From the NCBI GenBank assembly GCA_036630325.1, contig CP142736.1:372001-436000 (forward strand): a stretch of 64,000 bases of DNA, in the 5' to 3' direction. Positions 1,154 through 58,653 of this stretch are shown in pieces. This DNA comes from Vairimorpha necatrix. Lineage: Eukaryota. Both the position numbers and the translations under genes were made by a program. Each line of letters begins with the position of its first letter. The stretch's first letter is position 1. The notes under the pieces were generated by a model. That model was given only the letters and a program-made list of their open reading frames with translations. It had not been told where the DNA came from and did not search any database.

Positions 1154-2930
1154 AATAAACAAATTTTTATTTTCTTTACATATAAATACATCATTATATG
1201 CTTGAAATATACAAAAAAGTTTTAATCTACATTAACATATCAAAACGCCGGAAGGATATGGTGATAAAATATAGGTCATAGCATGGATTTAAAAAAATAC
1301 AGTTACTGAGACATTAATAAATTATATTTATAGTAAATGCTTAGTTCTTATAACACCATAATCTACAAAATAAACGCTTTTCGACAATATTAGCAACACC
1401 GAGATTAAAATAATAGTGACATTATTTCGCTGATTATTATTATATTATATTATATGGAAAAGGAGATATTTGATATAAACCCTGTCATGGCCGATCAAAT
1501 ACTGACTAATCATATTCTAGAAAACGTACTGATGTGATTGGCCACAAAAAAGTATAGAAAATATATCAAAAGGATGGAATTAAAATGCAATAAAGTTTTT
1601 GACATTAATACATTAAAAAACTTTTGACTCTTTTCGCCCTATATCTTACTTGTTTGTCGATAATTGTATCTAAATCTCTCCCATTTCAGTATTTTAAAGA
1701 GAAGATACTCTTCTTGAATCTTAGTCCTTTTCTTAAAAGATAAAAATTATATTTATAAGAAGTTAATTGGATTGATTATTCTATTTTTTTATTATTAAAC
1801 TGTTTAATTTCTTGGTTTGTCTTTCTTTTTGCCCCAAGGACACTAGTTTCGAGTCCACGGGCGTAAAAAATAGTGTAAAAATAAAAACGTAGTCTGAAAT
1901 AGCTAAAAATCAGAGATAAGGTAAAATTTTATGTATATATATAAAAAAACAAAACTAGAATAAACAAAATTATTATCGTAAAGTGGGGAATGATACATGA
2001 CTGGTCCAGCTCGACAGCCCCCCTGCCGCTACATTTAACAACAAATTTATATAATTTAACTTAAAAATTTTTGCGAAAAAAAAAAATTGAGAAAGATCCA
2101 TAAAAATGATATTGAGATAAAAAACAAATCAGCAACATATAAACAAATAACACATTTTATGTCGCGAGCCTAGGCAGTTACAGGCCGAACTAATATGCAA
2201 CATTACTTATTTTTTTATTTATATTCTATGCTGTATATTTTCATAATTTTTTACCAATATCTTTGATCAGTAACTAATTACATGAAACTTTTTTTTGTGC
2301 ACTCAATTTTTGAGCTCATAAGACTCGAATCAAGAGCGTAGGAAAACTCGATTCCAGACCACTGAGCAAAACATCTAGTAAAAAAATAATTAGAATATTT
2401 AAATCAAACATAACTTCCTTTCAAAAATATTTTTTATTTTTTATATGAATTGGCTCAAAACTCATAAAAAAATATGATTTTTTGTTTAAATTTGCAAGGA
2501 GATGATTTGAGTAGTAACTTTGACAAACAAGTATGGTAAAGGCCAAAAAAGAGCTGAGAAGTTTCTTCTTGAGGTAAATTAATCTTTCGGGGATATTAGT
2601 AATTTGTTTAAAACGTAGTAGTAGAGAGTAAAGTGCATTTTTTGAAGGTCATAATATAATTTTCACAAAGTCAATATTACCATAGACACAATCTTCTGTA
2701 TACGTTGTGTCATCGATCTTACTTCAATATCCTCGAAGTATTGTGCGAGAGGTTTGCAAGGAGTCAATGTTGTTTACGGGCGTAACTTATAAAAACAAAG
2801 GAACCCTACAAGCATATATTGGCCAAGCGGCCCTTTGCGGGTTATTGTCAACCTAGTAGACATGAGAGTCTTTATCCAGAACGAAGGACATAGTTGGTTA
2901 ACAATGCTATACTTAAATGTTGTATTTATC

Positions 2931-4242
2931 GGCCAAAAACCACTTTAGTCCCCCCTTACATATATAAATATCAATTTTTAAAAAATATCCCTTTTTTTCG
3001 AAAACCAAAATGAAAAAAAAGGAGGAGGAAAAAATTAAAATAATAAATTTAATAAAACTTTATAATAATTGTCTTTAGAGTTTCTAAGTAACATAAATCT
3101 TAATAAAAAAGGGTAAATAAACGTTTTTGTTCTATATCTAAGCGGTGTTTGACGTTTTACAGCAGACCAATTACCTTCTATGGTGTTGGTATGAACACAA
3201 GTAATGGGATCTTTAAACCATTTACTATGATTAACTGTACAATGATTAGCAATTATAGACTCCATTTTCGTATACCCTTTCCACATATCTGAATAAACTG
3301 TCGATTGTTTATCTATATATGTTGAAATAAGGTTTAGTAAAGTATTTTTGCATCTATTTGGGACTGGAACAAGTAAAATTTTGTTTTTACAGTCCGTTCG
3401 ACCATCCCAAATACCCACACACCTTCTACTTTATGGCCAACGTTGTATTTCCGTTTTCCAAATTTGCTTTCGTCAACTTCAACTATAATATCTTTACCTC
3501 CTAATGTTTCTCTTGCTTTTTCCATGTATTTGTGATAAACCTCGTGCAACAAAAACTGCTGAAGGGACCTCGAAACTGCACTGGAGGAAATACCTAACAA
3601 TTTGACAATATGTAGAGGCGAGATTTTTGTCAGCCAGAGCTTCAGGATCTTTAACATGGTTATATGATCCAAGTGTGTTTTTGCAAAAATTGTATTTGTA
3701 AAAAGACTCCTCTCTTTTTGGCATTTTTTACCAATGCATCTGACTACATTCGAAGTTTGCTGTCTTATTTTGACTTCTTTCCCACATTTTAAGCATTTTA
3801 TTAAAAGAAGTTTTTCTTTTATTTTATCATATGCTTTGTATATTTCTTCGTTGCTAAGCATGAAATAGGGTATTGAATAAAAAATTCTTTATCAGTGTTA
3901 CTAAGAATACTAAAAAATCATTTATAATGATAAATGATTAAAAGAAGTTCAACAAATGAATTTATAGAAGATTTTGTTTACTTATTATTTTTTGTAAAAA
4001 TTAAAAACATAAATACTAAATATGAAACATACGACGACTTAAAGAGTTAAATTTACATTTTTATAATTAATTTGACAAAATTTATATCATTATTTTTGGA
4101 TATTCGATTATTTTAAACAGTACTTTTTTTTAATTTTTTTTCCTCCTCCTTTTTTTTTCATTTTGGTTTTCGAAAAAAAGGGATATTTTTTAAAATTGAT
4201 ATTTATATATGTAAGGGGGGGGGACTAAAGTGGGAAAGCTCC
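2931..4242 (-). mobile_element. Merlin (IS1016/ISXO2-like) DNA transposon
   Basis: GG...CC termini, ~110-bp TIRs (ccactttagtcccccc...), perfect 8-bp TSD tatttatc (2923-2930 / 4243-4250), internal DDE transposase. Confidence 0.95.
3035..3861 (-). pseudogene. Merlin DDE transposase, frameshifted (ORFs 3334-3861 + 3035-3418)
   Basis: N-terminal CxxC...C-x4-C. Motifs VEVDESKFGKRKYNVG, WVFGMVER, YSDMWKGY, VNHS and HTNTIEGNWS are split over two frames near 3390. Confidence 0.92.
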
Positions 4243-5467: not shown

Positions 5468-6172
5468 TTATGAGTGGGCTATCACAGTTCTATTGAAGCC
5501 ATTGGCTACTACATTCTTTGCATCTAAAATTTCTATCAGTATAACTAATTTTTTAGGGAATCGAGACCAGTGGATACTGTTTAAAATTTTTATATAACTC
5601 AATAAATTTTCTTTGCTTTTAATTTTATTATTAAGTAATACGATGACTGAATCACTATCAAGTTCTCTTTCGTGGCAGTTTTTGTATATTTGCTCTATGA
5701 AATTTTTTTTTATTCGTAGTTTTTCTGTTGATAGAGTTATATCTTGTTTGCTATGGTCAGGATTTTTTTGTTCATAAAACAACACTGTTATAGATTGTTT
5801 ACTTGTCCATTGTTGCGTAAAAAAGTCGACTTTGTGTATATTTCCCGACATCGAAATACGTTTCAATCTCTCAGCATTTTCATTACTTATTATCTCGTAG
5901 CCTACCGTATGCCTCATTGATGAAAGAATAAATCCTAATACTAAACATATAATAAGTGTGAAAATAGATACTAAAAAGGAAAATTGACCACAAGTTAATG
6001 CGGTGTAGATTAAAGAAAATGTCAATAATCCCAATATTAAAAATGAAATCGAATAAGAAGCTGTTATTATGGAGAAATCGAATACATACTCAGTAATTAT
6101 AACTGAAGTAATTATAAATAATAGAGCTATAAGTAACATCAATAAAGAATTTTTCTTAGAATGTAAATTCAT
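5468..6172 (-). CDS. Lineage-specific membrane protein, 3 N-terminal TM helices (family T)
   Basis: 234-aa ORF with three hydrophobic segments; paralogs at 32763-33467 and 36918-37625. Confidence 0.85.
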   Translation of the reverse strand: MNLHSKKNSLLMLLIALLFIITSVIITEYVFDFSIITASYSISFLILGLLTFSLIYTALTCGQFSFLVSIFTLIICLVLGFILSSMRHTVGYEIISNENAERLKRISMSGNIHKVDFFTQQWTSKQSITVLFYEQKNPDHSKQDITLSTEKLRIKKNFIEQIYKNCHERELDSDSVIVLLNNKIKSKENLLSYIKILNSIHWSRFPKKLVILIEILDAKNVVANGFNRTVIAHS

Positions 6173-6669: not shown

Positions 6670-8185
6670 CATATCTTTTGCATCGACTAATTGACACTAA
6701 AATAAAGATAAATTCCTAATCTTTAATTAATAACACTAATAACGAATTAAATCAAACTCATTTATTAATTGCACAGAGTTAATAAAATTTTATATTTTAG
6801 TCGATCTAAAATTTGTTTTATAATTAAAGTAAATAATACGTTTGCATGACAAATTTTTATATATATTCTTGTTTCGAGTGAAAAAGGTTAATTGTTAGAA
6901 TATCAAGAAAACAAAATCAATAATAATATAAAATAAGCATTCATTTGTGATGTGTTGTCATAAATTATAATGTTCATTCTTATAACTTTTATATAGGATC
7001 GACCTTTTTTTGCAATTTCCTCAATATTTTCTTTCGGCGATTTTTATAAAAATAGTGGGAACCTTTTTTTGTATTCAGTCCATTTTTCAAACAAAGTTTT
7101 TTTTCCCATTTCAATTTTTATGAATAGATTGATAAAAAATTAGAACTAAAAACAGTGGAGGCTCATTGAAAAATTACTTTATTTATTGTATTCTTTTTAT
7201 ATTTGTCTTACAATGAAATGTATAAAACAATACAACTTATAAATGTATTATAAAGCAAAAAAAGCGAGAACTGAAAGTTATTCTAATATTATCATTATTG
7301 GAATGTGTACCTTAAAGTTTAACAAAAATATTTCTCGTATCAATATAAAATATCAAACACAGATCTAATTTAATGGACTAATAATGTACATAAGTACAAA
7401 TTTTGTTGTTGATGATGTACACTGTTAGATTCTTAGATCTTATTAATTTTTTTTACTTATGTTAAATTTTTGAATTTTTTATTGACAGGGATTGTTTATT
7501 ACAAGCACTATTTAACAAACAACTTGTTTGTTAGAATGGTTAATTTATAACATTCGGTGGTTTCCTTTAGTTTTTTTATCTTAATTTATCTTGAAAAGAT
7601 ACTATTTTGTCAGTATTAATTGCAAAGGAGTCTTATGATTACATAAAATTGCAAGTTTGCATCCCGGTTAAACATATTTATTCAAAAATTAAGGGTATAA
7701 AATATAATTTTTTAAATCTCAACATCCCCCTCTTAAAAACATTCGTCTATTATCAATTTCAGCTGAGAAGAATGTCGCTTAATAGTTTTGTTTCCTGTCC
7801 TCACCAGATATGTGTTGTTTTCTAAAACTTTATAAATTAAACCTCTAACCTTAAATTTGGGTTCTCCCTTTTTGACACCTGTTTCCGTTTTTATAATAAC
7901 GCTATCCCTCTCTGAAAATTGTGGTTCGGTTTCTCGGTTTTTATTTCTTTCATTGAATTTTAGTATCTCCTCATATTGTTTTTCTTTCACCTTTTGGAAA
8001 TTGGTCGGGTTTAAAGCATCATTCGGAGACATACCTAACTTACTATGATATATATTGTTATATACATCTAAAACCTTTAAAGTTTAATTTTAAGATTTTC
8101 TTTTCCCTCTTGTTTGTATATTCCTTCTTGTATTGTCCTATTAAATCTTTCCACTCTTCCATTGGACTGGTGGTGAAATGGTGAG

Positions 8186-11100
8186 TGTTGAGTGAAATAA
8201 TAATTATTTATAGCCCCTATTCTAGAATAAATGTTTATGGTGGAGAATATGAAAACAGAGATTAGTAGTGAAAATATCTTGCAGGAGCTACAAAGAGCTT
8301 CTTTACTTTCCAGTTTTAATAAATTATCAAATGAGGAAAAAATTGATTATTTTATTCATAAAGCCAACATTGAGATACTAGATTGGCATAGTAAGTTAAT
8401 GAAGGAGAAACGGAAATGTTCATTAACATTTGAAATGTGGAAAGAGTTGGCAGAAACGGAATTTGACTGCGGTACTGGATTGTACGAATTATATACTTTA
8501 AAACAAAAAGAAAACCAAAGTATTGTGGAATTTAATAAAGATGTAGAAAAGAAATGTCTAAAGGAAAATATCAGAAATACGGATAAAAGGAAGATAATAA
8601 GAAATGGAATCCTACCAAGATATAAGGCTATAAAAATGGTATTAACAGGGCAATATGAAATTAATAAAGAATTCCTTGAAATAATTGATGAAATGGAAAA
8701 GGAAAATAATGATATAACAAAAAAAAGACAACCTGCCTCCAATAACATCAACAAAGGATATTCATGTTATTTTTGCCACAAGGATGGGCATATCGCTAAA
8801 GGCTTATTTGCGAAGAAAAAAAGAACTGATGGTAAACAACTACAGTATAAAAGGATAAATGAGATCCACCAAGAAGGCGGAATGTTGGATGCAAACTTTA
8901 TTAACAATAAAGAAGATTTAATATATGTTTATAATGAAAAAATTAATGTAACTTTTGACTCGGGTTCTTACTATAATTTTATGAGTAAAAAGGCTGCTTC
9001 TGAACTAACTTTAAAAATTTATAGAAGTACAGAGGAAATATATTTTTTAACATGTTTAGAGGAAAGATTCGGGATTACAGAATATGTGATATTAGATTTC
9101 TCTTATGGTGGTAAAAGTTATCGTTCTAAATTTTTTATATTCCCTAAGGTGGAAAAATTTAAAATACTTGTAGGAAAAAAGACATTACAAGAAATATTGA
9201 AAAGGGTGTCTAGCAATAGAATTTGTGAAATAAATACGATAAAAGGAGAAAAAATTGTTGAAAAGGTCTATACACTACCAAAAAAGTTAGAAGAAGGAGT
9301 GGAAAAATCTATCAAAGAACTACTAAGGAAAAATTACATAAGAAAATCAAAATCAACGTGGTTGAATAATTTAAGACCAGTAATTAAACCAGATGGTTCT
9401 ATAAGAGTTACTACAAATTTAGTTTCGTTAAACAAATTGGTAGAGCTAGATAATTACTCCTTACCACACATTGATAAGCTTTTATACGGGCTTCGTGGAA
9501 AAAAATATTTTAGTAAATTGGATTTAAAAGATGCATTTTTTTGTATAGAATTAGCGGGAAAAGATAGATATAAGACCGCTTTCAGATTTAAGCACCTATT
9601 ATATGAATGGAACGTTATGCCAATGGGGTTTAAAAATGCTCCGGCAATTTTTCAAAGATTTATAGATGATGTTTTACAAGAAGAAATAGGGAAAAGTTGC
9701 TTCGTGTATGTGGATGACATACTGGTTTTTGGAGAAAACGAGGAAGAACATGATTTTAATTATGAGAAGATCATAACAAAGCTTAAAAGCTATAACTTAG
9801 GTATTAATGAGGATAAAACAATATATAAGGTTAAAGAACTTACCTTTTTGGGACATTTAATAGCATTTAACGAAATTAAGCCAAAAATTACACGGGACCA
9901 AGCAATTAACGATATGAAAAGACCAATCAATAAAAAATCACTGCAAGAATTTCTGGGACTTATTAATTATTATAGAAAATTTATTCCTAATTGTTCAAAA
10001 ATCGGAGGATGTTTATATGATCTTACAAAAAATGATATTCAATTTAATTGGGGGAAGGAACAGGATGCTGCTTTTAATACATTAAAGAAAATTGTATTGT
10101 CGAGCAGTGTGCTTAAACAGCCAGATTTTAGTAAACCTTACATATTAGAAACGGATGCATGTGACTCTGGTCTGGGAGCGATCTTGTCACAAGAAAATGA
10201 AGGGCATGTGTACCCCATCGCGTACGCTTCTAGAAGATTGGTTCCAGCGGAAAGAAATTACAGTATCAGCGAGAAAGAATGTATGGGTGTCCTATGGGGA
10301 ATGGAAAATTTTAGATATTTTTTATATGGAAATGAGTTTAAAGTAATAACTGATCACAAAGCTCTAGAGGTCCTAAATAAAGGCGAAATAAAATCGTTAC
10401 GTATACAAAGGTGGCTTGATAAATTGAGTGAGTATAATTACACGATCGAGTACAAAAGGGGGACAGATATTCCTCACGTCGATTGTTTGTCAAGATCTTA
10501 TCTTAATGAGTTAAATACGGATGAAATAAATATGATTGAATTTAGCGAAGAAGAAAAAAGGTCTATCATAAGGAATAAACATATAGAATTAGTTCACAGA
10601 GGATCAAAAGTTATTGAAAATGAATTAAGGAAAAAATATCATTGGAAAGATATGTCGCATATGGTAAAAACGGAAATTAATAAATGTCTAAGATGTAAGA
10701 TGTACAATCCACAAAGAGGAAAAAAATTTATATTTGTGACAGCATACGAACCTGGCGAAAAGGTAGCTGCCGATATTATAGGACTAATCAATGGAAGCTA
10801 TATAATTACGGCGATCGACTATTTTACAAGGAAAGCATGGGCTAAAGTCATTACTACTAGAGAGAGTAATAAGCTAGTGAAATTTTTTGATGAAGTTTAT
10901 AATGACATAAAGATTAAAATACTAATTCTTGATCAGTCAAAAGAAAATTTGAGTATTGAGGTAAAACAATGGGCAACGAGAAATAATGTTCAAATTCATT
11001 ATATTTTTTCTTTTCATCACCAATCAAACGGAAGAATAGAAAGATTTAATAGGACAATACAGGAAGGTATATATAAAGATAATAGTTTTGGAAATTTGAA

Positions 11101-11519
11101 GACAAAAACTAAGCGTGTACTAGATGTATACAATAATGTTAGACACTCCGCTCTTGGCATGTCGCCAGACGAAGCATGTAATCCTAAGAGAGCTCAGGAG
11201 ATTAAACTAAAACAATTCGAAGAAATCGTAAAATTCAACCAACGACAGAAGAAAAGAGGAGCTGAATTTATTTTTAAAGAGGGAGATAGAGTTATAATTA
11301 GAAGAGAAACCGATTTAACAAAGGGAAAACCTAGATTTGAATCGCAAGGTATAATTATTAATATTTTAGGAAATAATTCTTATAACGTTAAGGTCCATAA
11401 TAAAACTATAAAGCGACATGGCTCGCAACTTAAGCTAATAGTAGAGGATTATTTTGAATGAGGGGGATGTTGAGTGAAATAATAATTATTTATAGCCCCT
11501 ATTCTAGAATAAATGTTTA
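8186..11519 (+). mobile_element. Ty3/gypsy LTR retrotransposon B, single uninterrupted ORF, identical 52-bp LTRs (8186-8237, 11468-11519)
   Basis: 5-bp TSD gtgag (8181-8185 / 11520-11524), PBS tggtggagaat at 8238, PPT gaggggga abutting the 3' LTR. Inserted in the integrase of element A. Confidence 0.97.
8231..11461 (+). CDS. Gag-Pol polyprotein (Gag-PR-RT-RNaseH-IN), single ORF, 1076 aa
   Basis: CYFCHKDGH knuckle, FDSGS protease, MPMGFKNAP/YVDD RT, ETDAC/EKE/TDH RNase H, HHCC plus D-D-E integrase. The RT-RH-IN order indicates Ty3/gypsy. Confidence 0.97.
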   Translation: MFMVENMKTEISSENILQELQRASLLSSFNKLSNEEKIDYFIHKANIEILDWHSKLMKEKRKCSLTFEMWKELAETEFDCGTGLYELYTLKQKENQSIVEFNKDVEKKCLKENIRNTDKRKIIRNGILPRYKAIKMVLTGQYEINKEFLEIIDEMEKENNDITKKRQPASNNINKGYSCYFCHKDGHIAKGLFAKKKRTDGKQLQYKRINEIHQEGGMLDANFINNKEDLIYVYNEKINVTFDSGSYYNFMSKKAASELTLKIYRSTEEIYFLTCLEERFGITEYVILDFSYGGKSYRSKFFIFPKVEKFKILVGKKTLQEILKRVSSNRICEINTIKGEKIVEKVYTLPKKLEEGVEKSIKELLRKNYIRKSKSTWLNNLRPVIKPDGSIRVTTNLVSLNKLVELDNYSLPHIDKLLYGLRGKKYFSKLDLKDAFFCIELAGKDRYKTAFRFKHLLYEWNVMPMGFKNAPAIFQRFIDDVLQEEIGKSCFVYVDDILVFGENEEEHDFNYEKIITKLKSYNLGINEDKTIYKVKELTFLGHLIAFNEIKPKITRDQAINDMKRPINKKSLQEFLGLINYYRKFIPNCSKIGGCLYDLTKNDIQFNWGKEQDAAFNTLKKIVLSSSVLKQPDFSKPYILETDACDSGLGAILSQENEGHVYPIAYASRRLVPAERNYSISEKECMGVLWGMENFRYFLYGNEFKVITDHKALEVLNKGEIKSLRIQRWLDKLSEYNYTIEYKRGTDIPHVDCLSRSYLNELNTDEINMIEFSEEEKRSIIRNKHIELVHRGSKVIENELRKKYHWKDMSHMVKTEINKCLRCKMYNPQRGKKFIFVTAYEPGEKVAADIIGLINGSYIITAIDYFTRKAWAKVITTRESNKLVKFFDEVYNDIKIKILILDQSKENLSIEVKQWATRNNVQIHYIFSFHHQSNGRIERFNRTIQEGIYKDNSFGNLKTKTKRVLDVYNNVRHSALGMSPDEACNPKRAQEIKLKQFEEIVKFNQRQKKRGAEFIFKEGDRVIIRRETDLTKGKPRFESQGIIINILGNNSYNVKVHNKTIKRHGSQLKLIVEDYFE

Positions 11520-14345
11520 GTGAGGTATAATGTAATTCGACATTATTACTTGCTGCCCAACATCTTACTTCTTTACTTAGGTTTTCTTTCGATTGATCTA
11601 AAATTAGTTTATGTATCTTAATTTTTTGATTTATCATATCTAAAAATTTTACAATTTTCTTACTCTCCCTGGAACTTAGTACCTTTCCAAATCCGAATCG
11701 ACTAAAGTAATCAATCCCAGACACGATATATTGGTTGTTAATTGGACCAATAATATCTTTTGCTACTTTCTCTCCAATTGCATGTGACTTTACAAATAAA
11801 ATTCTTTTCCCTCTTTTAGGATTATACATTTTACACCGAATACACCTCTTTAACTCGTTTTTAGTCAATTTTCCCATATCTTTCCAATCGTATTTCTTTT
11901 TAAGTTCATTTTGAACTGCTTTATAACCTCTATGGACAAGTTCTAGGTGTTTATCACGGATAATTTTTCTTTTGTCTTCCTCAGTCATTTCTAATTCTAG
12001 ATTTTTAATCTCTAATATTTCTTGTCTTGGTGATCTGGATAAGCAATCCACATGTGGAATGTTTGTTCCTTTTCTATATACAACACAATAATTATATTCA
12101 CTAAGTTTGTCTAACCATCGTTGGATCCGCAAAGATTTTATCTCTCCCCTATTTAGTGCTTCTAGGGCCTTATGATCAGTGACTGCAGTAAATTCATTTC
12201 CATAGAGGAAATATCTGAAATGTTCCATCCCCCATAACATCGCTAAACATTCCTTTTCGCTGATTCCATAGTTTATCTCAGCAGATAACAATCTTCTTGA
12301 AGCGAAAGCAATTGGTACTGGACCATTTCCATGATCCTGTGAGAGGATAGCTACTATTCCTGACTGGCATGCATCTGTTTCCAAAATATAAGGTTTTTTG
12401 TAATCGGGTTAGGATAGAACCACGCGTGATCTCAATATACTTTTTAATTTCTTAAAAGCTTTTTCTTCTTCCTCTTACACTTAAATACAACATCCTTTTT
12501 AAGTAAATCATACAATGACCCGGCAATGATTGGACATTGTGGAATAAATTTACGATAGTAATTAATCAATCCTAAAAATTCCTCACAAGATTTTCTATTA
12601 TTTGGTCTTTATATATTTTCAATTCCTTGTTCAGCCGAAAATTTCGGCTTTATCTTGTTATATTTAATAACATGGCCTAAAAATTCTATGTTCTCTTTTT
12701 TATGTATAGTCTTTGACTCGTTAATTCGTAGCTCATATTTTTGTAGCTTGTTAATAACCTTTGTATAGCTTGTATCATGTTCTTCTTCATTTCTACCAAA
12801 AATAAGGATGTCATCAACATAGACAAAGCAATTTTTCCCTATTTCTTCTTCAAGGACGTTGTCCATAAACCTTTGAAAAACGGCTGGTGCATTTTTAAAC
12901 CCCATGGGCATTACGTTCCATTCGTATAATAAATGATTAAATCTGAAAGCAGTTTTGTGTTTGTCTTTTTCAGCCAATTTAATTTGAAAAAATCCATCTT
13001 TTAAATCAATTTTTGAAAAATATTTCATGTCTCTAAGACTGAATATAAGTCTTTCAATATTGGGGAGGGAATAATTATCTAGATCTACCAATCTGTTGAG
13101 CGCTATTAAATTCGTAGTAACTCTTATGGATCCATCCGGTTTGATCACTGGCCTAAGGTTATTTAGCCATGTTGAATTAGATTTCCTTATATACCCGTTT
13201 TTTAATAACTCATTTATAGAGTTTTGTATTCCTTCCTCCAATTTCTTTGGTAAACTATAAACGTGTTCTATTACCTTCTCTCCTGGTTTTGTATTGATCT
13301 CACAAATTCTATTGATCGGTTGTCGAAAAACTTTACAAATATCATCTTTTCCTATTAACACTTAAAAATTTTTAACTTTAGGTAAAACATACATTCTGCT
13401 TTTAAATATTCTATTACCATATTTGTATTCCACAATAACATGGTTTTCAACTAGAAATTCTTCTTCAAGACATGTGAAAAATTTCAAAACATTCATATTC
13501 TTATTGAGTTGCAATTTTAAATCATAGATAGCTTGAAGAGAGATAAAGTTGTAGGCCGCACCCGAATCAAAAACCACGGGGACTTTTTTAGTCCCAACAT
13601 AAATAAAATTATTTTTATTCGTAATAAAGCTTTGATCTACTTCCTGACTATCCTTTTCAATCTCATTAATATTCCTTCGATCATCATTAGCCTGTTTATT
13701 ATTTCGATTCGCCCTACAATCCTTAGCTAAATGTCCTGGCCTTCTGCATCTAAAGCATGTATTTGGTTGGTTCTGTTTAGTAAGTCTTAAACCATCCAAC
13801 TTGATATTCAATAATGCTTCGTTCTTCATCTCATTTAATATTTCGTAAAATTCTTTGTTGATCTCATATTGGGTCGTAAGAAAAATTTTACATCATTTTT
13901 AACTTTTTATCTACTCCTGATCTAATAATTTTTCTTCTGTCAAAATTGGAAATTTCATTTTCATTACATTTAGAAACTACATCTTTGATAAAATCAACAA
14001 GTTTTTGTTCTTCCTTTTGCTTCATATTGTAAATGTCAAAAAGCAATGTTTTATTCTCAAATTCTTGTTCCACTTCTTTTTTCCAGATTTCAAACGTTAA
14101 AGCAGCTTTCCTTTTATCTTTAAAAGTCCTACAATGCCAATCTAAAATATGAGAGTTAAGTCTGCTTATAAAAAAATCTAACTTCTCCTCATTGGTCATT
14201 TTTGCCCAACTACTCAGAGCCTCTGCTCTTCTAATTTCTACTATTATATTGTCTTTGTTTATTTCGTTTTTTATATTCTCCACCATAAACATATTTATTC
14301 TAAAATTAAGGGTATAAAATATAATCTTTTAAATCTCAACATTAG

Positions 14346-15615: not shown

Positions 15616-16241
15616 ATACACTTAATTTTTGAAAAATAATTTCGGATAAAATTTTTCATTTGACATGTTTTGGAGACATGTCATGTTGGTAAGAAAAAAT
15701 TTAACTAATTATAAAAAGGTTTAATCATGTATAATTATTGTTCGAAGATAATTATAACATTGATATATTAGCATAGTACAAAGGCAGATTTTTAATGCAA
15801 ATACATTCTATTTTTATACAAAATGCAACATAAAAAAAAACTATTTAATGTGCAGCTTTTAAACTTATTATAAAGCAGATCCTACCATAAAAACTAAATC
15901 ATAAGTTTGATAAGTTAAATTTTCAGATTCAAATGTCAATATCAAAAAGATTTTGTGAAATTAATAATGCAAAACATAAAATATTGTTAAATGGTAGAAA
16001 GTTATATGATATTTCTTTTGATGTCTATCACACAGTATAGTTTTTTAAGTATTAGCAATTTAAATTTATTAATAAAGGATTTGACACCTTTCAAAAATAA
16101 TTAAGTCGTATTACTTCTATTGAATGCAATTTTTTAAAACATATTTTTATTTCAATTGAACTATAATCACTAATATTTGCAAAAAAAAACGTTTTTAAAT
16201 CATGATACTATAGTATAAATAATTTTTTTACAATCTACCCC

Positions 16242-18155
16242 ATGATCAAACAGCAATTTTTCATACCAACAATTGCATTCTTTTGTATGAAAAATTTTAT
16301 TAAAACTATTGAAATTGCCAAAGAGTCCAGTGAAATGATTGACCAAACTCTGGATACATATTCTAGCAATTTTGTAAAAAAGCATGATAATATTAATGAG
16401 TTGAAATATATAGATCATTCAGGAATTTGTTTTGAAAAAGATATTGAAAAAACTAATAATATTTCTGTATCTAAAATATTAAATGATCTGCAAAACGAAA
16501 ATAGCATATTTGGAAGCCCGTATGAGAACCTAAACGATAAAAAAACGAATAATATTGATTTTTATGTCCTTAAATATGTTTGTAATAAGTTTTTTCATTT
16601 ATTACTGTTGGAAAAGCCCTTTTATAGTAGGTTGCCCAAATTTTATCTTGTTAGAGAAAACACTACCATTTTTTCTGAAGAAATGGAGGTAATTTTTTAT
16701 AACGCAGTTAAAAATCATGCTTGCGGTGAAGAGTTACTCCCATCTGTCAAAGACTCCGCTTATGATTATTTAAACCCTTTTGTAATTGAAAGTTTAGAAC
16801 TTATTTACATATTATCTAGTAATGAGTTTCAAAAATTATTTCTGAAACCATTTGAGCTTGATCGAATATGGTCAGATATTGCCAAATGTTTTGATTTAAA
16901 ATATTCAACTAATAAAAAAGATAAATTAGAAACGATGTTCGAAAGCATAAAGTATAAGAAAATTCTGAATAAACTGTTTAGATTAGTTAATAAGTCCAAT
17001 GATAAATTAAATTTTAGCAATAAAACTCGAGATAAGAAGCCCAATTTTTTTAAACATTTGTTTGCTACAGCTTATGGATTAGCTTTATTGCCCTGTGCGA
17101 GTCTAGCGCCATTAGAGAATAATTTACTGCCTAGCGTAAAAAATGTTAATTATGATTTCAACAATGAAAACGAATCGGTATCTCAACACTCTGTAGTGAT
17201 AAATGACAATTTTAATGAAATAATTCATAATACAAAATACGGGTACAACAGAGAACTAGAATTACCAATTGATATGCGAGATGAAAATGAGGAGAAAGAA
17301 TACATAATCGGAGAAAATGAATATAGTATGTTTGAAAGTGAGGACGGTAAAACTTTTAAGACGATAAAAAAATACGACAAGGAAACTACAGGTGATTTGA
17401 ATGCGATCAGTTCAACAATAGAAAATTCTTTTGATAAACCTAGCCCAGAAGACGTTTCGTCTACTCATTACTTTTTATCTACCAACAAAAAGATTACGAA
17501 CGAGGAGGATTTGACTGTTGTTGATAATACACATGCTTCTTTATCACCATATATTGAAGCTAATAGTAAGACTAATAATAATTTTAACATAGATCTGCCT
17601 TCTACAATTACAACCGAAATAAACAAAATGGTTAAAAATGAAAAAAATTATATTGACCTAAAAGAATCGAAAACAAAAATACCGGCTAAAGGAAAAGAAA
17701 GGAGCAAAAGAGCACCGAAAGGATATAGATATAAATTCAAATTTAAACCTAAATTTAAACCCAGTAAACCAGCAAAAACTGGTGAAAGCAACCTTAAGCC
17801 CTCTAAAAACGATGTAAAAAGTGAGAGCATCCCCAAACAATCGAAAAACGGAGGGAAAAGTGGAGGTAAATTCTCTAAAAGTGGAAAAGCTGGTAAAGGT
17901 CTTTTTAAGAAGGGAGGTAAGAAATTAAAAAATCCTTTTAAAATGCCTGACTTCAATTTAAAAGAATTTTTTAGTAGAATATTTGAACTAATAAAGTCTG
18001 GTTGGTATATAGTGCTACCAATAATAGGTATCATAATTTCTATTATTGGCGCACTATGTCGTTTCTTTGGTAAAAAACTTTTCAAATGTTGCTGTTGCAA
18101 GAAGAAAAAATCTGACGAGGATAAAGAAAAACTTATACCAAATGAGAAAAAATAA
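16242..18155 (+). CDS. Lineage-specific type I membrane/surface protein (family S paralog)
   Basis: ccccATG start and hydrophobic N-terminus. Shares NNIDFxVLKxVCNKFF and LPSTITTEINK with the 25.7-28.5-kb gene. K/G-rich region, C-terminal TM, CCCC-KKKK tail. Confidence 0.9.
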   Translation: MIKQQFFIPTIAFFCMKNFIKTIEIAKESSEMIDQTLDTYSSNFVKKHDNINELKYIDHSGICFEKDIEKTNNISVSKILNDLQNENSIFGSPYENLNDKKTNNIDFYVLKYVCNKFFHLLLLEKPFYSRLPKFYLVRENTTIFSEEMEVIFYNAVKNHACGEELLPSVKDSAYDYLNPFVIESLELIYILSSNEFQKLFLKPFELDRIWSDIAKCFDLKYSTNKKDKLETMFESIKYKKILNKLFRLVNKSNDKLNFSNKTRDKKPNFFKHLFATAYGLALLPCASLAPLENNLLPSVKNVNYDFNNENESVSQHSVVINDNFNEIIHNTKYGYNRELELPIDMRDENEEKEYIIGENEYSMFESEDGKTFKTIKKYDKETTGDLNAISSTIENSFDKPSPEDVSSTHYFLSTNKKITNEEDLTVVDNTHASLSPYIEANSKTNNNFNIDLPSTITTEINKMVKNEKNYIDLKESKTKIPAKGKERSKRAPKGYRYKFKFKPKFKPSKPAKTGESNLKPSKNDVKSESIPKQSKNGGKSGGKFSKSGKAGKGLFKKGGKKLKNPFKMPDFNLKEFFSRIFELIKSGWYIVLPIIGIIISIIGALCRFFGKKLFKCCCCKKKKSDEDKEKLIPNEKK

Positions 18156-18753: not shown

Positions 18754-20673
18754 TGTCTTTATTTATCATAATAGTGGGTAGAAATTATACAAATATATCA
18801 CATCCCCACTCAAGACGGTTAGTCCCATATAATTTTCAAATCTACCCAATCATACATTTCAAATCTTAATGTCTCTTCTTCCCAGGCCTACCATTACTAA
18901 GTTTTACAATATAAGAATCTTTTCCACACTTTTCAACAATTTTCCCTGTATCCAAAAATCTTCCTTTTTCATACTTATTAACACCTGCCAAATTTTCTCG
19001 TTTAGCTATTCTTACCAATTGACTTTTACTAAATTTTTCAATCTTTCCTTTTCTAAACCTATTACAGTATTTCCCTATAGGGCTATTTTCAAGCATACGT
19101 CTCCAGTTTTATCTTAAGTCGCTTCTATTGGTGTACATTTTATTCCTGCATGATAGCTCTGATTATATATCGATACTTTTATAAACTTTACCTTCAAAAG
19201 TTTGCGCTTCCGACTTAAAATATTTTCTCTCAGTTTCTATAACACGCTCTACTCTACCGTTACTTCTATGCGCTTCTATGATTATTGTTGAAGTATTATA
19301 TCCAGATCTCTACAAATTTTTATAAATTCCCGCCAATAAACTCTTTCTCGTTATCTGTAATATTTCTTTCGGTTTCTTCCCTTGTTCACATAATCTTTTC
19401 AAAAATCCAAAAACATTATTACTTGACTTGTTATTTATGACTTTTTTCCATACTCTTCGTGTAAAATAATCGATAGCAACTAAAACATATTTCTTCTCAT
19501 TTCTAAAGTCTATCAAACATAATGCAACCTTCTCTAGGTATCTCGACGTATCAACAAATTTACAACCATTTATATTTTCCTGTTATATATCTGACATTTC
19601 TGACACTGTTTTAAAACCTCGTTTATTTCTTTCTTTACTTCTGGCCAATAATATTCCTCTCTCATTGCATAATAAACACTTGCTATACGTCTGTGGTCTA
19701 CCTTTTCAGAATGTTTTTGGTTAATTGTCTTCTAATATTCTCCGGTGGTATTTCAATTTTACGTCCTGAATCAAACTTAAAATAATGCTTTCAATTCTCA
19801 GAAGAAACATGTGCCTTCAATTTACCTTCTGTTTGCTTGATTGTTCGCTATTGATTTTTCATTTGTTTAATATCCTCTTCCATGTTTATTCGACTCAACG
19901 CATCTGCTACCACCATCTCATAAAGTTTTTTTTTATATATAATGCTAAAACCATATTTCTGTATTCTTTCGATTAAGCGATTTTATCTGTTTTTGTTAAA
20001 AACGGTTTGTTTTTTATCTCCACCAGTGTTTTGTGATCCGTTTCTATCTTGAATTTCCTACCTTTTAACTCGTATTTAACTTATCAATGCCCCAATATAT
20101 CGCAAGCATTTCCTTTTCTGATATGCCGTATCTTACTTCTGTTGGTGTTAGCTTTTTAAATGTCTATTGGATAGCAACCCATTCTCCATTCTTCTAAAGT
20201 AATACCGCACCTAATCTCAAGTTACTAGCATCTGTTCTTGGGGAAAACTCCTTATTATAGCCCGGCAATCTTAGTCTTCACATAATTCTTAAAACGCTTT
20301 TCATTTCAGTAAGCTCCTCTCTTATCTCTTTTTCCATTTCCACGAATTGCCATTTTTTATAAACTATCAGTCATTTTCAATGTCAATCCGGCATAATCCT
20401 TTATAAATGGTCTGATCCGCCCTGTTAATAAAGAAGCCTCCTCTATTCCGTCAAACTTTTCAGTTCTGGATACTCAAGGGCTTCACTTTTCTTTATTTCG
20501 TCAGTCTTTATGTGTTTCATTCAACGTCACACCTAACAATTTTACTTCCTGTTGTCTAAAGGTATTTTCGCACTCTTTAATTTCATTTTATGTCTCTAAA
20601 CTCTTTCTAAAACCTCTATGACTAGTTCATCGTGTTTACGTCTATTGAAGGCATGTATTACTATATCGTACAT
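18754..20673 (-). mobile_element. Degenerate Ty3/gypsy pol remnant (RT C-term, RNase H, IN) with candidate 49-bp 3' LTR (18754-18802)
   Basis: Fragments YVLVAIDYFTRR, TDAS, ETDHK and YGISEKE. PPT gagtgggga then TGTGA...AATAAAGACA. Truncated at the hAT insertion. Confidence 0.85.
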
Positions 20674-24649: not shown

Positions 24650-25656
24650 ATAAGTAAGAAAAACTTTACATTTAAATTTTAAAAACCTCAAACGTTGGTT
24701 TAACCCGGGTAATATTCTATAAAAACTTTATGGAAAGTCTAATGGCATCAACAATCTACAGTGCTATTATTAATTTATATGAATAATTATTACACAAAAT
24801 TATAGTTAGCATTTTTTTAAAATTGTCGATTATTCAGAATTAAAATTAATATTAATAATAAAATCGAAAGAGTATTAAAATAATATATCGGTACATATTT
24901 CTAGTGTTTATTTAACATATTTTTCAAGTAGCGAAGGAGGTGACTTGTTGAATGTAATACTCTCATAAGTTTGGGCATGTCATCGTCGTAATCTTCATTA
25001 TTCCTTTTCAGATATCTACTTACTTCTTATACGTACATTTCATATTGATATTCTCATAACGCATCATGATTTTTTTTTAAAAATTTATTTCAGAAAATTC
25101 GTCGATGGGTTTGACAGTTAAAAGTTTAATATTACGTGAAAACATTAATATAACAAAGGGGATTTTACAATACCTAGGAGAAAAAAAACATTTTTTTTTT
25201 GTTTATAAGAGCTAAGTTGTACTATTTTTGCGAAATAAAAATCAAGAAATCTTTTGAATTATGCATAGCTGAAACTTTTAATAGACAAATAATGTTTTAA
25301 AATACAGAAGCATTTCTTATCTACCTTTTTACGGTTAAACAGACGATAGCCGATTTTTTCACATTATAGCAGATAATTAAAAAGATCAAAAATTAATTAA
25401 ATATTAAAAATAAGGTACTTTATGCAATAATGTATTTATTACGCCAGTATATAATTGGTCAATACAAAATTTTTACATTATAAATAATGATTTGACATCT
25501 CTCTGTGATTCTATAATAAAATGTCAAAAAAAAATCTATAATTGTTGTAAATAGTTTATATTTTATAATTTTTAATATATTTATAAAATATTTTTGGAAA
25601 TACGGTTGAAAAATATGACATGAGACTATATATATATAATTTTCAAAATCTACCCC

Positions 25657-28459
25657 ATGATTAAACGGCTCTATTTAATACTAACAACTGTTTTTATTTG
25701 TTTGTTATTTTTCAATCAAAGTATTGCGCATATAGTAAAAAATAAAGAAATGATGACGAAAACTATGGATACCTATCTTAGTAATATGGCAGAAAAGCAT
25801 GATGATATTGATGAATTAAGATTTTCCGACCAGCCAGAAAAAAAGCCCTATTACAGATGTTGAAAACTTTTGTCATAATAATACTGAATTAACGACATCA
25901 TTTAATTTGCGCAACGAACATATCATAATTCAAAGTCCTTTTGCGAATGAAAACAAAGAAATAACAAATAATATCGATTTTGTAGTTCTTAAACATGTAT
26001 GTAATAAGTTTTTTCAATTATTATTAACGAAAAATGAATTTAATAGTAGGCTGAGGCAGATTTATCTTGCCACAAATAAAACTTATTCGTATACCAAGAA
26101 CTTGGAGGAGCTTTTTTATATATCAGTTAAAAATTATGCTTGCAATGTAGAATTACACCCATCTATCAAAATTTTGTATTTTGAATATTTGAAAGATTTT
26201 GTAGCCGAAAGTTTTGAACTGATATTTATATTATCTAGTAAAAAATTTCAAAGATCGTTTTTGACGCCACTAGAATATGAACGGATATGGTCTGATATAG
26301 ATAAATGTATTGAAATAAAATTTTATACTAATAGTGAGGATAAATTAGAAAAAATGTTCGATGGCATAAAATACAAGAAAATTGTAGGTAACCTCCAAAA
26401 ACTTGCTGATAGATTAAATGATCAATTTTATGCAACCAATAGAGCTAAAAATCAGATGCCTAGTTTTTTGGAATATATGTCAGCTGCTACTAATGGATTA
26501 TCTTTGCTAAAATACATGAGTCAGATATCAAATAAAAATAATGTATTGCCTACTGAAATGGTAATGTATGATGATCATAATAATCTGCGCGAAACAACTA
26601 CTCGATATTCTTCGGTTATAGATGATAATCCTTATGGATATATAGCCAATTCAAATTACGACTATAGCAGAGAACCTGAATTACCATTTGATGTGCAAAT
26701 TAAAAATAATGACAATTCTACTAAAGTCGGCAAAAATGAATATAGCACAATTAAAAGTGACATTGACTCTGCTGCCGACACAATAAGAATTTTCCACTTT
26801 GATACCACAACAAAGGTCGATTCTTCTACTGAGACAACTAAAAAATCAGACGAAGAAACAGCAACAAGAAAACATTTGGTTAGTTCAACAACAGACAACC
26901 ATTTTTCAGTTATAACTGAAGTTGATACAATCAGTTCACAATATAATAATTCTTTTGATCGAATTACAACAGAAGAGAATTCTACTAATATGACTCGAAT
27001 AAAACACGAAGAAAAAACTGCAAGAGAAATTTATACAAATAGTTCAACAAACGATGATTTATTTGGTACAACTACAAAAGAAGAGCATTCTACATATAAA
27101 ACAGTGAAAAGTTCTGACGACGAAAATACAACGGAAGTTAATACGTTAAGTTCAACGATAGATGATTCATTTTTTAAAACTACAAAAAAAGAGGATGCTG
27201 CTAATGTAACAACAAAAATTTATGAGGAAGAAACAACAACAGAAACTAATAAGAGTGTAACAATCAATGATTTTGTGTATAAAGCCCCCGAAGAGACCAT
27301 TTCGACAACTGTTTTAAACGTTTCTAGTAGTGAAGAGATATTAACTGACGGATTCTTGACTGTCGTTGATTTTAATACTTCTGTATCTCCATCACCATAC
27401 ATAAAAATTAATGATGCGAATGATGATAATTTTAAAACAGAATTACCTTCAACAATTACAACCGAAATAAACAAGATAGATAAGATTAAAAAAAGTTCTT
27501 ATGACGAAAATGATAAAAATAATACTCAGCCGATTAGATATTATTTACCTGATCAAAATTATAATAACCAAGATCCGTCCATTGAATCTGGTCCCAAAGG
27601 ACCAGGTTTATTATCGAAAGTCGTCAAAAAAGTCATTGATGTGGGCTCGGACGCTGTAGATGCAGTTGAAGATATAGCTGTAGAAGCTGGTGGTGCGATA
27701 GCTAAAAAAGGCATAAGAAAAGTCACTAAGCGTATAGACAAAGGAATGCAAGCAGCCAAGGGAGCTTTAGATGCCATAGGCGTTGGTTCAGATATTGGCT
27801 CTGGTTTACAATCTATAGTAAAAAATGAGGGAAATTCAAAAAACTTTCCAATAAAAAAAAAATCAACAGGAATACAAAAGCAAAAAACGCATGGAAAGTA
27901 TAATTTAAAGTCAAAAAAAAATAGTAGACAACAGTCAGTCGAAGGAACTAAAAAATCAGCAAGAGATAAAGGAGGAAAAACTAAAAATACAGATGGAAAG
28001 GAAGAAAAGAAAACTAAAAAACCAGTAAAAGATAAAGAAAGGAAAACTAAAAATACAATTAGTAAAGAAGAGAAGAAAATTAAAAAACCAGAAAAAGATA
28101 AAGAAAGGAAAACTAAAAATACAATTAGTAAAGAAGAGAAGAAAATTAAAAAACCAGTAAGAGATAAAGAAAGAAAAACTAAAAAACCAGTCAAAGATAA
28201 AAAAAGAACTGCAAAAAAATCAGGAGAAAACAATAAAAAGGAAAAAAGTGATCAGTATAAAATGGCTAAGAATAAATCAAAAGATTTTTTTAGTGGAATT
28301 GCGGACGTTTTAAAACTTAATTGGAAAATATTGACCGCATTATTGGGTTTTATATTACCTATTATTGCCGTATTATGTAGTTGTTTTGGAAAAACAATGT
28401 TTAAATGTTGTAGCCCGAAGAAGAAAAATATCGACGAGGAGAAAAAAGAATTGAGTTAA
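25657..28459 (+). CDS. Lineage-specific mucin-like type I membrane protein (family S), apparently frameshifted in an A7 run near 25840
   Basis: ccccATG start and signal peptide. ORF 25657-25863 aligns to the N-terminus and ORF 25907-28459 to the rest of paralog 16242-18155. T/S-rich stalk, K-rich repeats, TM, Cys tail. Confidence 0.85.
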
Positions 28460-32762: not shown

Positions 32763-33467
32763 TTATGAGTGGGCTATCACAGTTCTATTGAAGCCATTGG
32801 CTACTACATTCTTTGCATCTAAAATTTCTATCAGTATAACTAATTTTTTAGGGAATCGAGACCAGTGGATACTGTTTAAAATTTTTATATAACTCAATAA
32901 ATTTTCTTTGCTTTTAATTTTATTATTAAGTAATACGATGACTGAATCACTATCAAGTTCTCTTTCGTGGCAGTTTTTGTATATTTGCTCTATGAAATTT
33001 TTTTTTATTCGTAGTTTTTCTGTTGATAGAGTTATATCTTGTTTGCTATGGTCAGGATTTTTTTGTTCATAAAACAACACTGTTATAGATTGTTTACTTG
33101 TCCATTGTTGCGTAAAAAAGTCGACTTTGTGTATATTTCCCGACATCGAAATACGTTTCAATCTCTCAGCATTTTCATTACTTATTATCTCGTAGCTTAC
33201 CGTATGCCTCATTGATGAAAGAATAAATCCTAATACTAAACATATAATAAGTGTGAAAATAGACACTAAAAAGGAAAATTGACCACAAGTTAATGCGGTG
33301 TAGATTAAAGAAAATGCTAATAATCCTAATATTAAAAATGAAATCGAATAAGAAGCTGTTATTATGGAGAAATCGAATACATACTCAGTAATTATAACTG
33401 AAGTAATTATAAATAATAGAGCTATAAGTAACATCAATAAAATATTTTTCTTAGAATGTAAATTCAT
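32763..33467 (-). CDS. Family T membrane protein (duplicate of 5468-6172)
   Basis: Start assigned to MNLHSKK by homology; three amino-acid differences from copy 1. Confidence 0.85.
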   Translation of the reverse strand: MNLHSKKNILLMLLIALLFIITSVIITEYVFDFSIITASYSISFLILGLLAFSLIYTALTCGQFSFLVSIFTLIICLVLGFILSSMRHTVSYEIISNENAERLKRISMSGNIHKVDFFTQQWTSKQSITVLFYEQKNPDHSKQDITLSTEKLRIKKNFIEQIYKNCHERELDSDSVIVLLNNKIKSKENLLSYIKILNSIHWSRFPKKLVILIEILDAKNVVANGFNRTVIAHS

Positions 33468-36917: not shown

Positions 36918-37625
36918 TTAAGAGTGGTTGATCACGTTTCTATTGAAGCCATTGGCTACCACATCTTTTGGTTCTAAGATTTCTATAAGTATAACTAAAT
37001 TTTTAGGGAATCGGGACCATTGAATGCTATTTAAGATTTTTATATAGTTTTGTAAGTTTTTTTTACTTCTAATTTCATTGTATAATGATGCAATAGCTGG
37101 ATCACTTTCCGATTTCCTATTATTACAAGCATCGTATATTGACTTTAAGAAATTTTTTTTTAAATCTATAAGATCTTCTGATGATAAAAGTTTATCTTGT
37201 TCATCACTTACATATTGTTTTTGTTCATAAAACAAAACCGATATAGACTGTTTACTTGTCCACTCTCGTGTTTTTTTCTTGGTTTTGCCCACATCGTTGT
37301 CAATGCGAGCATCTAATAAATTTACTGCATCAAATTCGCTTATAATCTCATAGCCTACAGTATGTCTCATTAGTAAAAGAATAAGTCCCAATATAAAACA
37401 TGTTATAAGTGTCAAAATAGATACTAAAAATGAAAAAGGACTTCGACACACTCCGGCATAGATTAAAGAAAATGCCAATAATCCCAAGATTGAAAATGAA
37501 ATTAAATAAGAAGCCGAGATTATAGAGTAATCAAATGCGTATTCAGTAATGATAAACAAAGTAAATATAAATAAAAGTGCTATAAGTAACGAATATAAAG
37601 AGTTTTTTTTAGAATGTAAATTCAT
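36918..37625 (-). CDS. Family T membrane protein, diverged paralog
   Basis: MNLHSKKNSL start, conserved MRHTVGYEIIS, WTSKQSI and C-terminal WSRFPK...VVANGFNR. Confidence 0.88.
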   Translation of the reverse strand: MNLHSKKNSLYSLLIALLFIFTLFIITEYAFDYSIISASYLISFSILGLLAFSLIYAGVCRSPFSFLVSILTLITCFILGLILLLMRHTVGYEIISEFDAVNLLDARIDNDVGKTKKKTREWTSKQSISVLFYEQKQYVSDEQDKLLSSEDLIDLKKNFLKSIYDACNNRKSESDPAIASLYNEIRSKKNLQNYIKILNSIQWSRFPKNLVILIEILEPKDVVANGFNRNVINHS

Positions 37626-58349: not shown

Positions 58350-58653
58350 TGTGGTATTATAAACACCACAAATTATTTATATTTATTTTATCAATTTTCC
58401 CTTTTTGGAAAATAGACCATTCGACCGGTCTATTCCAAAAATCGAATATTTATTTCTTTTTTGCCCCGAGCCCCACACCAGATAACGAAATTAACAGGCG
58501 ATCAGTACCCTTGGAAAAATAGACCAAGGAAGGGCTACCAAGCCAGGGATCAGTATTTGTTACAGATGCCTAACGAGGCTCATCTAATACTAATAAAACC
58601 ATTAACTATATCGAATTATATTTATCCAGAGGTGGCTCCTCTGGGCTACGTCA
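58350..58653 (+). mobile_element. Solo LTR inserted in the RT of the 56-62 kb element
   Basis: TGTGGT...CTACGTCA with perfect TSD taaac at the VYIDD codons. Motif NYIELYLSRG lies near the 3' end (out of frame with the nearest ATG). Confidence 0.88.

Follow-up and report, generated by a model that had tools for sequence, protein, structure and literature searches.

We analysed a window of 64,000 nt from a contig of the microsporidian Vairimorpha necatrix (CP142736.1), to which all coordinates below refer. The window has a G+C content of 22-34%; the published V. necatrix genome is described as having 28.3% G+C and about 50% repeats (PMC10759460). On the forward strand, two direct repeats of 52 nt, at 8186-8237 and 11468-11519, enclose a candidate long terminal repeat (LTR) retrotransposon that measures 3334 bp from LTR to LTR. 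The repeats (TGTTGAG...ATGTTTA) are 100% identical, and a search of the window allowing up to three mismatches found just these two copies, with 0.00 expected from 100 shuffles. The same pentanucleotide, GTGAG, borders the element on the left (8181-8185) and on the right (11520-11524). The left copy was read from the sequence and agrees with the empty-site contig described below, which skips 3339 nt with five ambiguous bases; the right one was read from the sequence and from contigs of public sequencing runs. The locus has the two LTRs and the short target site duplication (TSD) of LTR retrotransposons, and a polypurine tract (PPT) adjoins its 3' LTR. The initial annotation of this DNA had reported identical 52-bp repeats and a perfect GTGAG TSD. 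Sequence and repeat search agreed with both statements, and all of its coordinates were found correct on rechecking.

At 52 bp, the LTRs are shorter than the 100 bp commonly asked of LTRs. The latter figure is an operational cut-off of common finders and not a biological definition. The LTRs run from TG to TA and not from TG to CA, both here and in the related element that surrounds this one (see below). TG...CA is common among LTRs without being absolute, and TG...TA is a known non-canonical pair.

The interior is filled by a single open reading frame (ORF) of 1076 amino acids on the forward strand (8231-11461), recognised from the ORF call and Pfam as Gag, protease (PR), reverse transcriptase (RT), RNase H (RH) and integrase (IN). 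Its first ATG (8231-8233) corresponds to A46-T47-G48 of the LTR, inside the last 7 nt of the 5' copy, and the frame crosses the junction between the LTR and the primer binding site (PBS) as ATG TTT A|TG GTG GAG AAT. Because an in-frame TAA (8228-8230, within the AATAAA) abuts this ATG, the frame cannot begin further 5'; the in-frame ATGs at 8231, 8237 (straddling the LTR/PBS junction) and 8249 are each candidate starts. At the other end, the stop codon TGA (11459-11461) overlaps the PPT (GAGGGGGA, 11460-11467), which touches the 3' LTR, and GGGGGA alone (11462-11467) lies between stop codon and LTR. A 1076-aa Gag-Pol starting in the last 7 nt of the 5' LTR and reading through the PBS, as described in the initial annotation, is therefore what the sequence contains, and its further statement, that 6 nt of PPT are the sole non-coding part of the interior, was also correct.

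Pfam assigned RVT_1 to residues 386-542 (E 1.4e-32), RT_RNaseH and RT_RNaseH_2 to residues 607-735, Integrase_H2C2 to residues 773-828, and rve and rve_3 to residues 840-978. The window protein was aligned with seven relatives (eight rows). Invariant positions in this alignment were D243 and G245 of the protease motif D-S-G (residues 243-245, 8957-8965), and Y493, D495 and D496 of the RT motif YVDD (residues 493-496), RT and RNase H together occupying 9386-10435. Also invariant were D642, E683 and D708, and, in the integrase with its HHCC zinc domain and DDE core (10547-11164), H784, H789, C819 and C822 and D848, D901 and E937. The order PR-RT-RNase H-IN is that of Ty3/gypsy elements; the integrase lies downstream of RT-RNase H and not upstream of RT as in Ty1/copia. 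The top protein match was a V. necatrix protein deposited as 'endonuclease' (P0001), identical at 794 of 807 positions (98%), and this protein was the sole match in a word search with the Gag region. It begins at the third in-frame ATG, omitting the residues encoded by LTR and PBS, and ends within the integrase zinc domain.

The LTR itself contains a TATA-like AT-rich tract (TTATTTATAG) followed by CCCC (8214-8217), the two forming a putative microsporidian core promoter (8204-8217). Next comes AATAAA (8226-8231), whose counterpart in the 3' LTR (11508-11513) may serve as poly(A) signal, and then the ATG. All the motifs listed in the initial annotation were thus present. The putative PBS, TGGTGGAGAAT(AT) at 8238-8250, abuts the LTR and is translated as (M)VEN. 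It starts with TGG, able to pair with the CCA of a tRNA, and is kept in the sister family (14285-14273 in the surrounding element) and in relatives. In the initial annotation it was described as complementary to a tRNA-Ala-type 3' end, which would make tRNA-Ala a candidate primer. No tRNA gene was detected in the window.

The element is inserted into an older, related one, identified by blastn and tblastn on the reverse strand (7669-14341). This outer element spans 6673 bp, or 3334 bp once the insert is subtracted (6673 - 3339 = 3334). Its 56-bp LTRs (14341-14286 and 7724-7669) are identical at 54 positions (2 mismatches), its PBS lies at 14285-14275 and its ORF is frameshifted. When the inner element was compared with the window by blastn, its positions 1-258 matched 14341-14080, positions 1029-2818 matched 13314-11526 and positions 2827-3334 matched 8178-7669, with 66-69% identity. 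The tblastn matches showed 51-63% amino acid identity and fell in several frames, indicating that the outer copy is frameshifted and old. The protein match broke at inner residue 924 (subject position 11527) and resumed at residue 928 (subject position 8178). Removal of the insert restores the outer frame exactly, since 2 + 5 (one TSD copy) + 2 = 9 nt account for the 3 missing residues.

Of six public runs, none of them recorded as RNA, four were compared with the locus, all aligned as contigs, whose depths were not taken as copy numbers. In one run (X1), a contig of 1330 nt joined 8180 to 11520, skipping 3339 nt (3334 + 5) with five ambiguous bases. In a second run (X2), a contig joined 8182 to 11522. 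Both contigs carry the empty site. The initial annotation had proposed to look for polymorphic empty sites: a precise empty site does exist in public contigs, and allelic polymorphism does not follow from it, as the X1 contig may derive from a paralogous outer copy. These data also bear on whether the structure could be an artefact of assembly, such as a junction that was collapsed or duplicated. Misassembly readily affects short repeats and multi-copy elements, and circularly permuted contigs were indeed seen. However, the LTRs, TSD copies and flanks of either side are all present in the window, taking out the insert turns the flanks into a single uninterrupted related element, and contigs with the empty site occur in X1, which may be the window's own source sample, as well as in X2. 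We consider the chance of such an artefact negligible.

The public contigs also provided information on other copies. In X2, unrelated sequence was found directly before 11468 and directly after 11519. Because these contigs carry different flanks at the same LTR ends, breaking at 11467/11468 and at 11519/11520, the other copies share the LTR boundaries of the window copy. Contigs of X1 (3226 nt) and of a third run, X3 (241 nt), passed from 11467 back to 8186 via exactly 52 shared bases. We did not count this joint, which goes back 3282 nt, as extrachromosomal cDNA; it may reflect a 1-LTR circle, a tandem array or a collapse of the repeat in the assembly graph, between which contigs do not discriminate. 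No longer version of the LTR was present among the assembled contigs of the public runs. X3 is labelled as a bat gut metagenome and contained three short contigs at least 99% like the element, one of which makes the join across the LTR; they probably come from the DNA of an infected insect eaten by the bat. As for the age of the insertion, the identity of the LTRs, taken in the initial annotation as a sign of recent insertion, is real, and youth follows from it only loosely because 52 bp are too short: the probability of observing zero differences is 0.35 at 2% divergence and falls to 0.05 at 5.8%.

The Gag region contains a zinc knuckle, CYFCHKDGHIAKGL (8765-8806), of the form C-X2-C-X4-H-X4-L, in which the last cysteine is replaced. 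In the window copy, codons 8801-8806 are GGC TTA (G-L, giving HIAKGL). All the X1 and X2 contigs covering this site have A at 8802, G at 8805 and T at 8806, that is GAC TGT (D-C), and P0001 reads HIAKDC. These readings indicate that the knuckle of the family is intact and that the window copy is a variant with three clustered changes. The CCHC knuckle is also intact in the relatives P0002, P0007, P0009 and P0010, so that the motif is absent from the window copy and present in the family. The initial annotation was right about the missing cysteine, for the window copy only. Some Ty3/gypsy lineages tolerate variant knuckles.

Given its mutated knuckle, the window copy may be non-autonomous. A stronger version of this idea is that it is defective and cannot transpose by itself: intact members would have moved it in trans, or the changes would have arisen once it had inserted. 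The G-L codons, set against D-C in every covering X1 and X2 contig and in P0001 and against the intact CCHC of the four relatives, speak for this explanation. Against it, the 1076-aa frame is otherwise uninterrupted and no catalytic residue is missing, and three changes within 5 nt might reflect an assembly or consensus error in the window. We place this explanation slightly below an even chance.

We then considered whether the short LTRs are native to the element. The outer element shares with the inner one the TGTTGAG start, the TATA-like tract, CCC, AATAAA and the junction ATGTTTA|TGGTGGAGAAT, and has its own PPT, AAGAGGGGGA, at the equivalent position. When metagenome contigs were scanned, 80 loci emerged, 25-43% identical to the query (34% for the best locus), among which the close relatives P0002 and P0005-P0010 did not appear. 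When each locus was compared with itself, 51 had no repeat flanking the match and 29 had a flanking direct repeat; the flanking repeats of 24 loci were judged plausible. Repeats of 21 nt in five of the 29 (L007, L042, L062, L067 and L069) were treated as chance, and repeats located at both contig ends in another five (L024, L026, L052, L056 and L080) as assembly overlap. LTRs of 101-754 bp were found in 16 loci, and LTRs of 39-66 bp accompanied by a TGG PBS and a PPT in three. Of the latter, L012 has a 39-bp LTR with the TSD TTATA and L002 a 53-bp LTR with the TSD GATGT. L001, the closest metagenome relative, has two identical 66-bp LTRs and a TSD that is unreadable, the contig ending 3-4 nt past the LTR. 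All three end in TG...CA, and all compared LTRs start with TGTT and have an A before the TGG at their end. L001 has the same architecture as the window element with a different PBS, its ATG being located in the LTR (ATG ACT TAC TTC GAC A|TG GCA CCC). Furthermore, the contigs that carry six relatives of 1071-1111 aa measure 3304-3519 bp, with 46-198 nt outside the ORF, and these lengths would fit equally compact elements.

An alternative is that the 52-bp repeats are remnants, the window copy being deleted or truncated from a family with normal LTRs of at least 100 bp. LTRs below 100 bp are rare in the literature searched, where 194 bp (PMC3701649) was the shortest figure quoted in one set of articles. 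This explanation is very unlikely, since the sister family, at 67-69% DNA identity, has homologous 56-bp LTRs, the X1 and X3 contigs share exactly 52 bases at the LTR, L001, L002 and L012 have LTRs of 66, 53 and 39 bp with perfect TSDs in two of them, and contigs of 3.3-3.5 kb accommodate six relatives of about 1080 aa. The initial annotation had named much longer LTRs in other copies as the observation that would point to a deletion derivative. We found none: the outer element has 56 bp, the contig joins 52 bases and the relatives 39-66 bp. The comparison of sequences thus supports the view that the short LTR is native and not a deletion product.

A third element with RT and integrase similarity is present in the same window (56210-62325, reverse strand; tblastn match 56718-59043). 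It is more distant and is flanked by repeats of about 250 bp (56210-56461 and 62096-62325) that are 77-89% identical. Because an element with LTRs of about 250 bp sits in the same window, short LTRs are a trait of the lineage and not of the genome. A fragment resembling RNase H and integrase at 19244-20274 (reverse strand), 29-54% identical in pieces to the Gag-Pol protein, is probably a decayed retroelement.

To place the element, RT-RNase H sequences (363 columns, 43 rows) were analysed by maximum likelihood with a quick IQ-TREE search and a caulimovirus outgroup. One clade of 15 rows (SH-aLRT 86) comprised the window element, all the named microsporidian proteins, from V. necatrix, Nosema granulosis and Nematocida ausubeli, and the three metagenome loci with short LTRs, L001, L002 and L012. 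The four loci of the tree with LTRs of 101-378 bp fell outside this clade. The outside rows L008 and L036 are short and on long branches. The sister of the microsporidian clade was a metazoan 'K02A2.6-like' clade (SH-aLRT 98 for that clade). The window element grouped in the ingroup with Ty3-I, Tf2-like and K02A2.6-like sequences, in a tree that contained no curated Ty1/copia or BEL/Pao references. The phylogeny called for in the initial annotation therefore places the RT within the Ty3/gypsy ingroup, in a microsporidian clade. Domain order, RT phylogeny, TSD, position of the PBS and PPT together make the element a member of Ty3/gypsy, from which it departs in LTR length, in its TA terminus and, for the window copy, in its knuckle.

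The translated PBS was also found in relatives. In the eight-row alignment, MVEN or MVED occurred at or near the N-terminus in five rows, MAPD in one (P0008), matching the PBS of L001, and neither in the remaining two. An exhaustive HMMER search with the Gag-PR region (residues 1-330) as query gave 41 representatives, 19 of which matched from within the first 30 query residues. MVE(N/S) was present in the first 21 residues of 12 of these 19 (MVEN in eight, MVES in four), after 0-17 further residues; the other seven start downstream of the MVE position and are hence uninformative. Any LTR ending in A and followed by TGG will produce an ATG, the unusual feature here being a polyprotein frame that continues open from it. 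The conservation of an N-terminal tripeptide in the fast-evolving Gag would be best explained by a constraint on the nucleotides, with TGGTGGAG serving as PBS. The M-V-E-N at the N-terminus of Gag would then be set by the PBS and not by a need of the protein, genome compaction reaching even the parasite's own parasites. A search for tRNA sequences in 60 of the 80 metagenome loci detected tRNA-Ser-like sequences only, in seven distant loci. In these gypsy-like loci (L053-L058 and L060) the sequence, with anticodon tga or aga, lies a few kb from the RT (for example 6191-6273 in L053).

In microsporidia, a CCC-like motif is described just before start codons, after A/T-rich sequence; E. cuniculi 5' untranslated regions (UTRs) are shorter than 7 nt, poly(A) signals are of the AAUAAA type and transcriptional overrun is frequent (PMC2803860). 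The CCC/GGG motif has been extended to Nosema (PMC5499648). In the window, CCC(C) or GGG(G) occurred 0-6 nt before the ATG in six of ten other long ORFs, three of which have cellular Pfam domains (including a MutS homologue and a ubiquitin hydrolase) and three no Pfam match. Of the five short LTR types compared, all but L002 (inner, outer, L001 and L012) have a TATA-like tract, CCC and AATAAA. The AATAAA follows CCC in both window families and precedes it in L001 and L012. The spacer between CCC and ATG measures 13 nt (inner), 17 nt (outer), 5 nt (L001) and 10 nt (L012), and the corresponding distances from CCC to the LTR end are alike, at 20, 23, 21 and 16 nt. For comparison, CCC and AATAAA occur together in just 1.5% of all 52-nt windows of the analysed DNA. 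Its motifs would allow the reading put forward in the initial annotation, in which the LTR joins a minimal promoter of microsporidian type to a poly(A) signal.

The tiny LTR might instead provide only integration ends and homology for strand transfer, the element being expressed by read-through from a neighbour, here antisense to the outer element. This possibility is suggested by a U3 limited to about 32 nt, by a spacing between CCCC and ATG unlike that of the other motif-bearing ORFs of the window, and by the frequent transcriptional overrun reported in a microsporidian (PMC2803860). It is nevertheless unlikely. If transcription began upstream of the LTR, the strong-stop DNA made from the transcript would terminate in the flank and be unable to pair at the 3' end. 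In addition, the three motifs recur in four of five short LTR types, against a background of 1.5% of 52-nt windows, and the reported distance of microsporidian promoters from the ATG is no more than a few tens of nt (PMC2803860).

If, as we prefer, the LTR carries its own promoter, the element could function as follows. U3 would consist of the first 32 nt or so, namely the TGTT integrase end, the AT-rich, TATA-like tract and CCCC, resembling a microsporidian core promoter. Transcription would start just after CCCC and before the ATG (about 8218-8231), leaving for R and U5 together at most about 16-23 nt, partly or wholly coding; the 0-17 residues that precede MVE in relatives would then be translated R-U5. 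Cleavage, guided by the AATAAA of the 3' copy, would occur at the LTR end or just past it, with no separate U5. A tRNA with the 3' end ...AUUCUCCACCA would prime a minus-strand strong-stop DNA of 8-20 nt, which would be transferred to the 3' R, and the PPT would prime the plus strand. Finally, integrase would join the TG...TA ends, producing the 5-bp duplication.

With a probability that we put at roughly 0.8, the locus is a structurally complete, single-ORF element of Ty3/gypsy type that belongs to a recently transposing family and to a microsporidia-associated clade with native LTRs of about 40-66 bp. Several observations weigh against this interpretation. The 3' end of the LTR is TA rather than the canonical CA. 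The window copy lacks the last cysteine of the knuckle, which other copies have, and P0001, apart from it the one named copy, has a truncated integrase, so that neither of these two is intact in every motif. The X1 contig with the empty site starts precisely where the outer element ends (7669), and may therefore represent a paralogue of the outer family and not an allele. No TSD was recognised around the outer element (ACTAA upstream, ACCGG downstream), and its absence may result from decay or from recombination between two copies. With SH-aLRT values of 86-87 from a quick search, the clade is moderately supported, and the branch leading to L002 is long. CCCC and ATG are 13 nt apart (17 nt in the outer element), compared with 0-6 nt in the six ORFs, and the motif may act differently here. 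Lastly, the AATAAA ends 6 nt before the LTR end, and cleavage at the usual distance of about 20 nt (PMC2803860) would fall in the flank.

Among known systems, the microsporidian Ty3/gypsy groups of Parisot et al. 2014 likewise encode one Gag-Pol polyprotein in Ty3/gypsy order in microsporidian hosts, and a microsporidian regulation signal was described in the putative promoter of one such element (PMC4202319). The main text of that article gives no LTR length, PBS or start-codon position, and its figure 1A or supplements may show LTR sizes. An ATG in the LTR combined with a translated PBS has a precedent in Ty1 of Saccharomyces cerevisiae (Ty1/copia), whose PBS lies inside the GAG ORF as it does in the window element (PMC4974528). 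The window element thus resembles Ty1 in translating R-U5 and PBS. The GAG ATG of Ty1 is in the 5' LTR, and its LTRs are about 330 bp long. Ty1 differs in having the integrase before RT and two frames with a +1 frameshift in 5.9 kb, as opposed to RT-RH-IN in one frame and 3.3 kb. With Ty3 and the Metaviridae, the window element shares the order PR-RT-RH-IN, YVDD, the HHCC and DDE integrase, the 5-bp TSD, the TGG PBS next to the LTR and the PPT next to the 3' LTR. Ty3, in contrast, is 5.4 kb long with two ORFs, untranslated leaders and a bipartite PBS, whereas the window element has no leader and a TA terminus; the Ty3 LTR is about 6-7 times longer. The Mag lineage, considered here together with the K02A2.6-like elements of the sister clade, often has one ORF and short LTRs, of 119-304 bp in Culex (PMC3286476). 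Mag-lineage elements are nevertheless 4-10 kb long, with LTRs of at least 119 bp as printed, and their PBS is assigned to tRNA-Leu, Ser or Arg. The LTRs of Bombyx Mag are reportedly about 77 bp long, and the Nbr elements of Nosema bombycis may be of the same kind as the window element. Short LTRs may already have been reported for the N. bombycis elements. The literature searched, which did not include the original articles on N. bombycis elements and Bombyx mag, contained no LTRs below 100 bp in autonomous elements and no microsporidian PBSs.

We give even odds to the broader proposal that the whole microsporidia-associated clade consists of the smallest autonomous LTR retrotransposons known, of about 3.2-3.9 kb, with LTRs of 39-66 bp, a host-style U3 of about 30 nt and an R+U5 of at most about 20 nt translated together with the PBS. 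Should this be true, it would set a new practical lower limit on LTR content: an LTR of 52 bp, or 39 bp in a relative, would carry the integrase ends, promoter, R, poly(A) signal and start codon. The cis-requirements of reverse transcription and integration would be bounded far below those of textbook elements, and the clade would offer a natural minimal system for the shortest R. Such elements would be missed systematically by finders set to a minimum of 100 bp, and annotations of microsporidia would list them among host 'endonuclease' or 'integrase' genes. Since LTR finders at their default settings probably do miss them, estimates of transposable element content, insertion dates and gene counts in repeat-rich microsporidia may be biased.

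Other features of the window were noted in passing. Two identical arrays of eight overlapping 33-nt tandem units, at 607-945 and 27913-28251, lie 27 kb apart inside the ORFs 440-1153 and 26354-28459. Near them are two paralogous stretches, 16214-17665 and 25629-27513, which are 72-73% identical. Arrays and stretches together suggest a duplicated gene pair with an internal repeat of 11 residues. In addition, three paralogous ORFs of about 235 aa on the reverse strand (5468-6172, 32763-33476 and 36918-37625) start with MNLHSKKN and have no Pfam match. Each of them is preceded by AAATAAATATTTTTAG and GGG(G), and two lie within a tandem duplication of 4158 bp.

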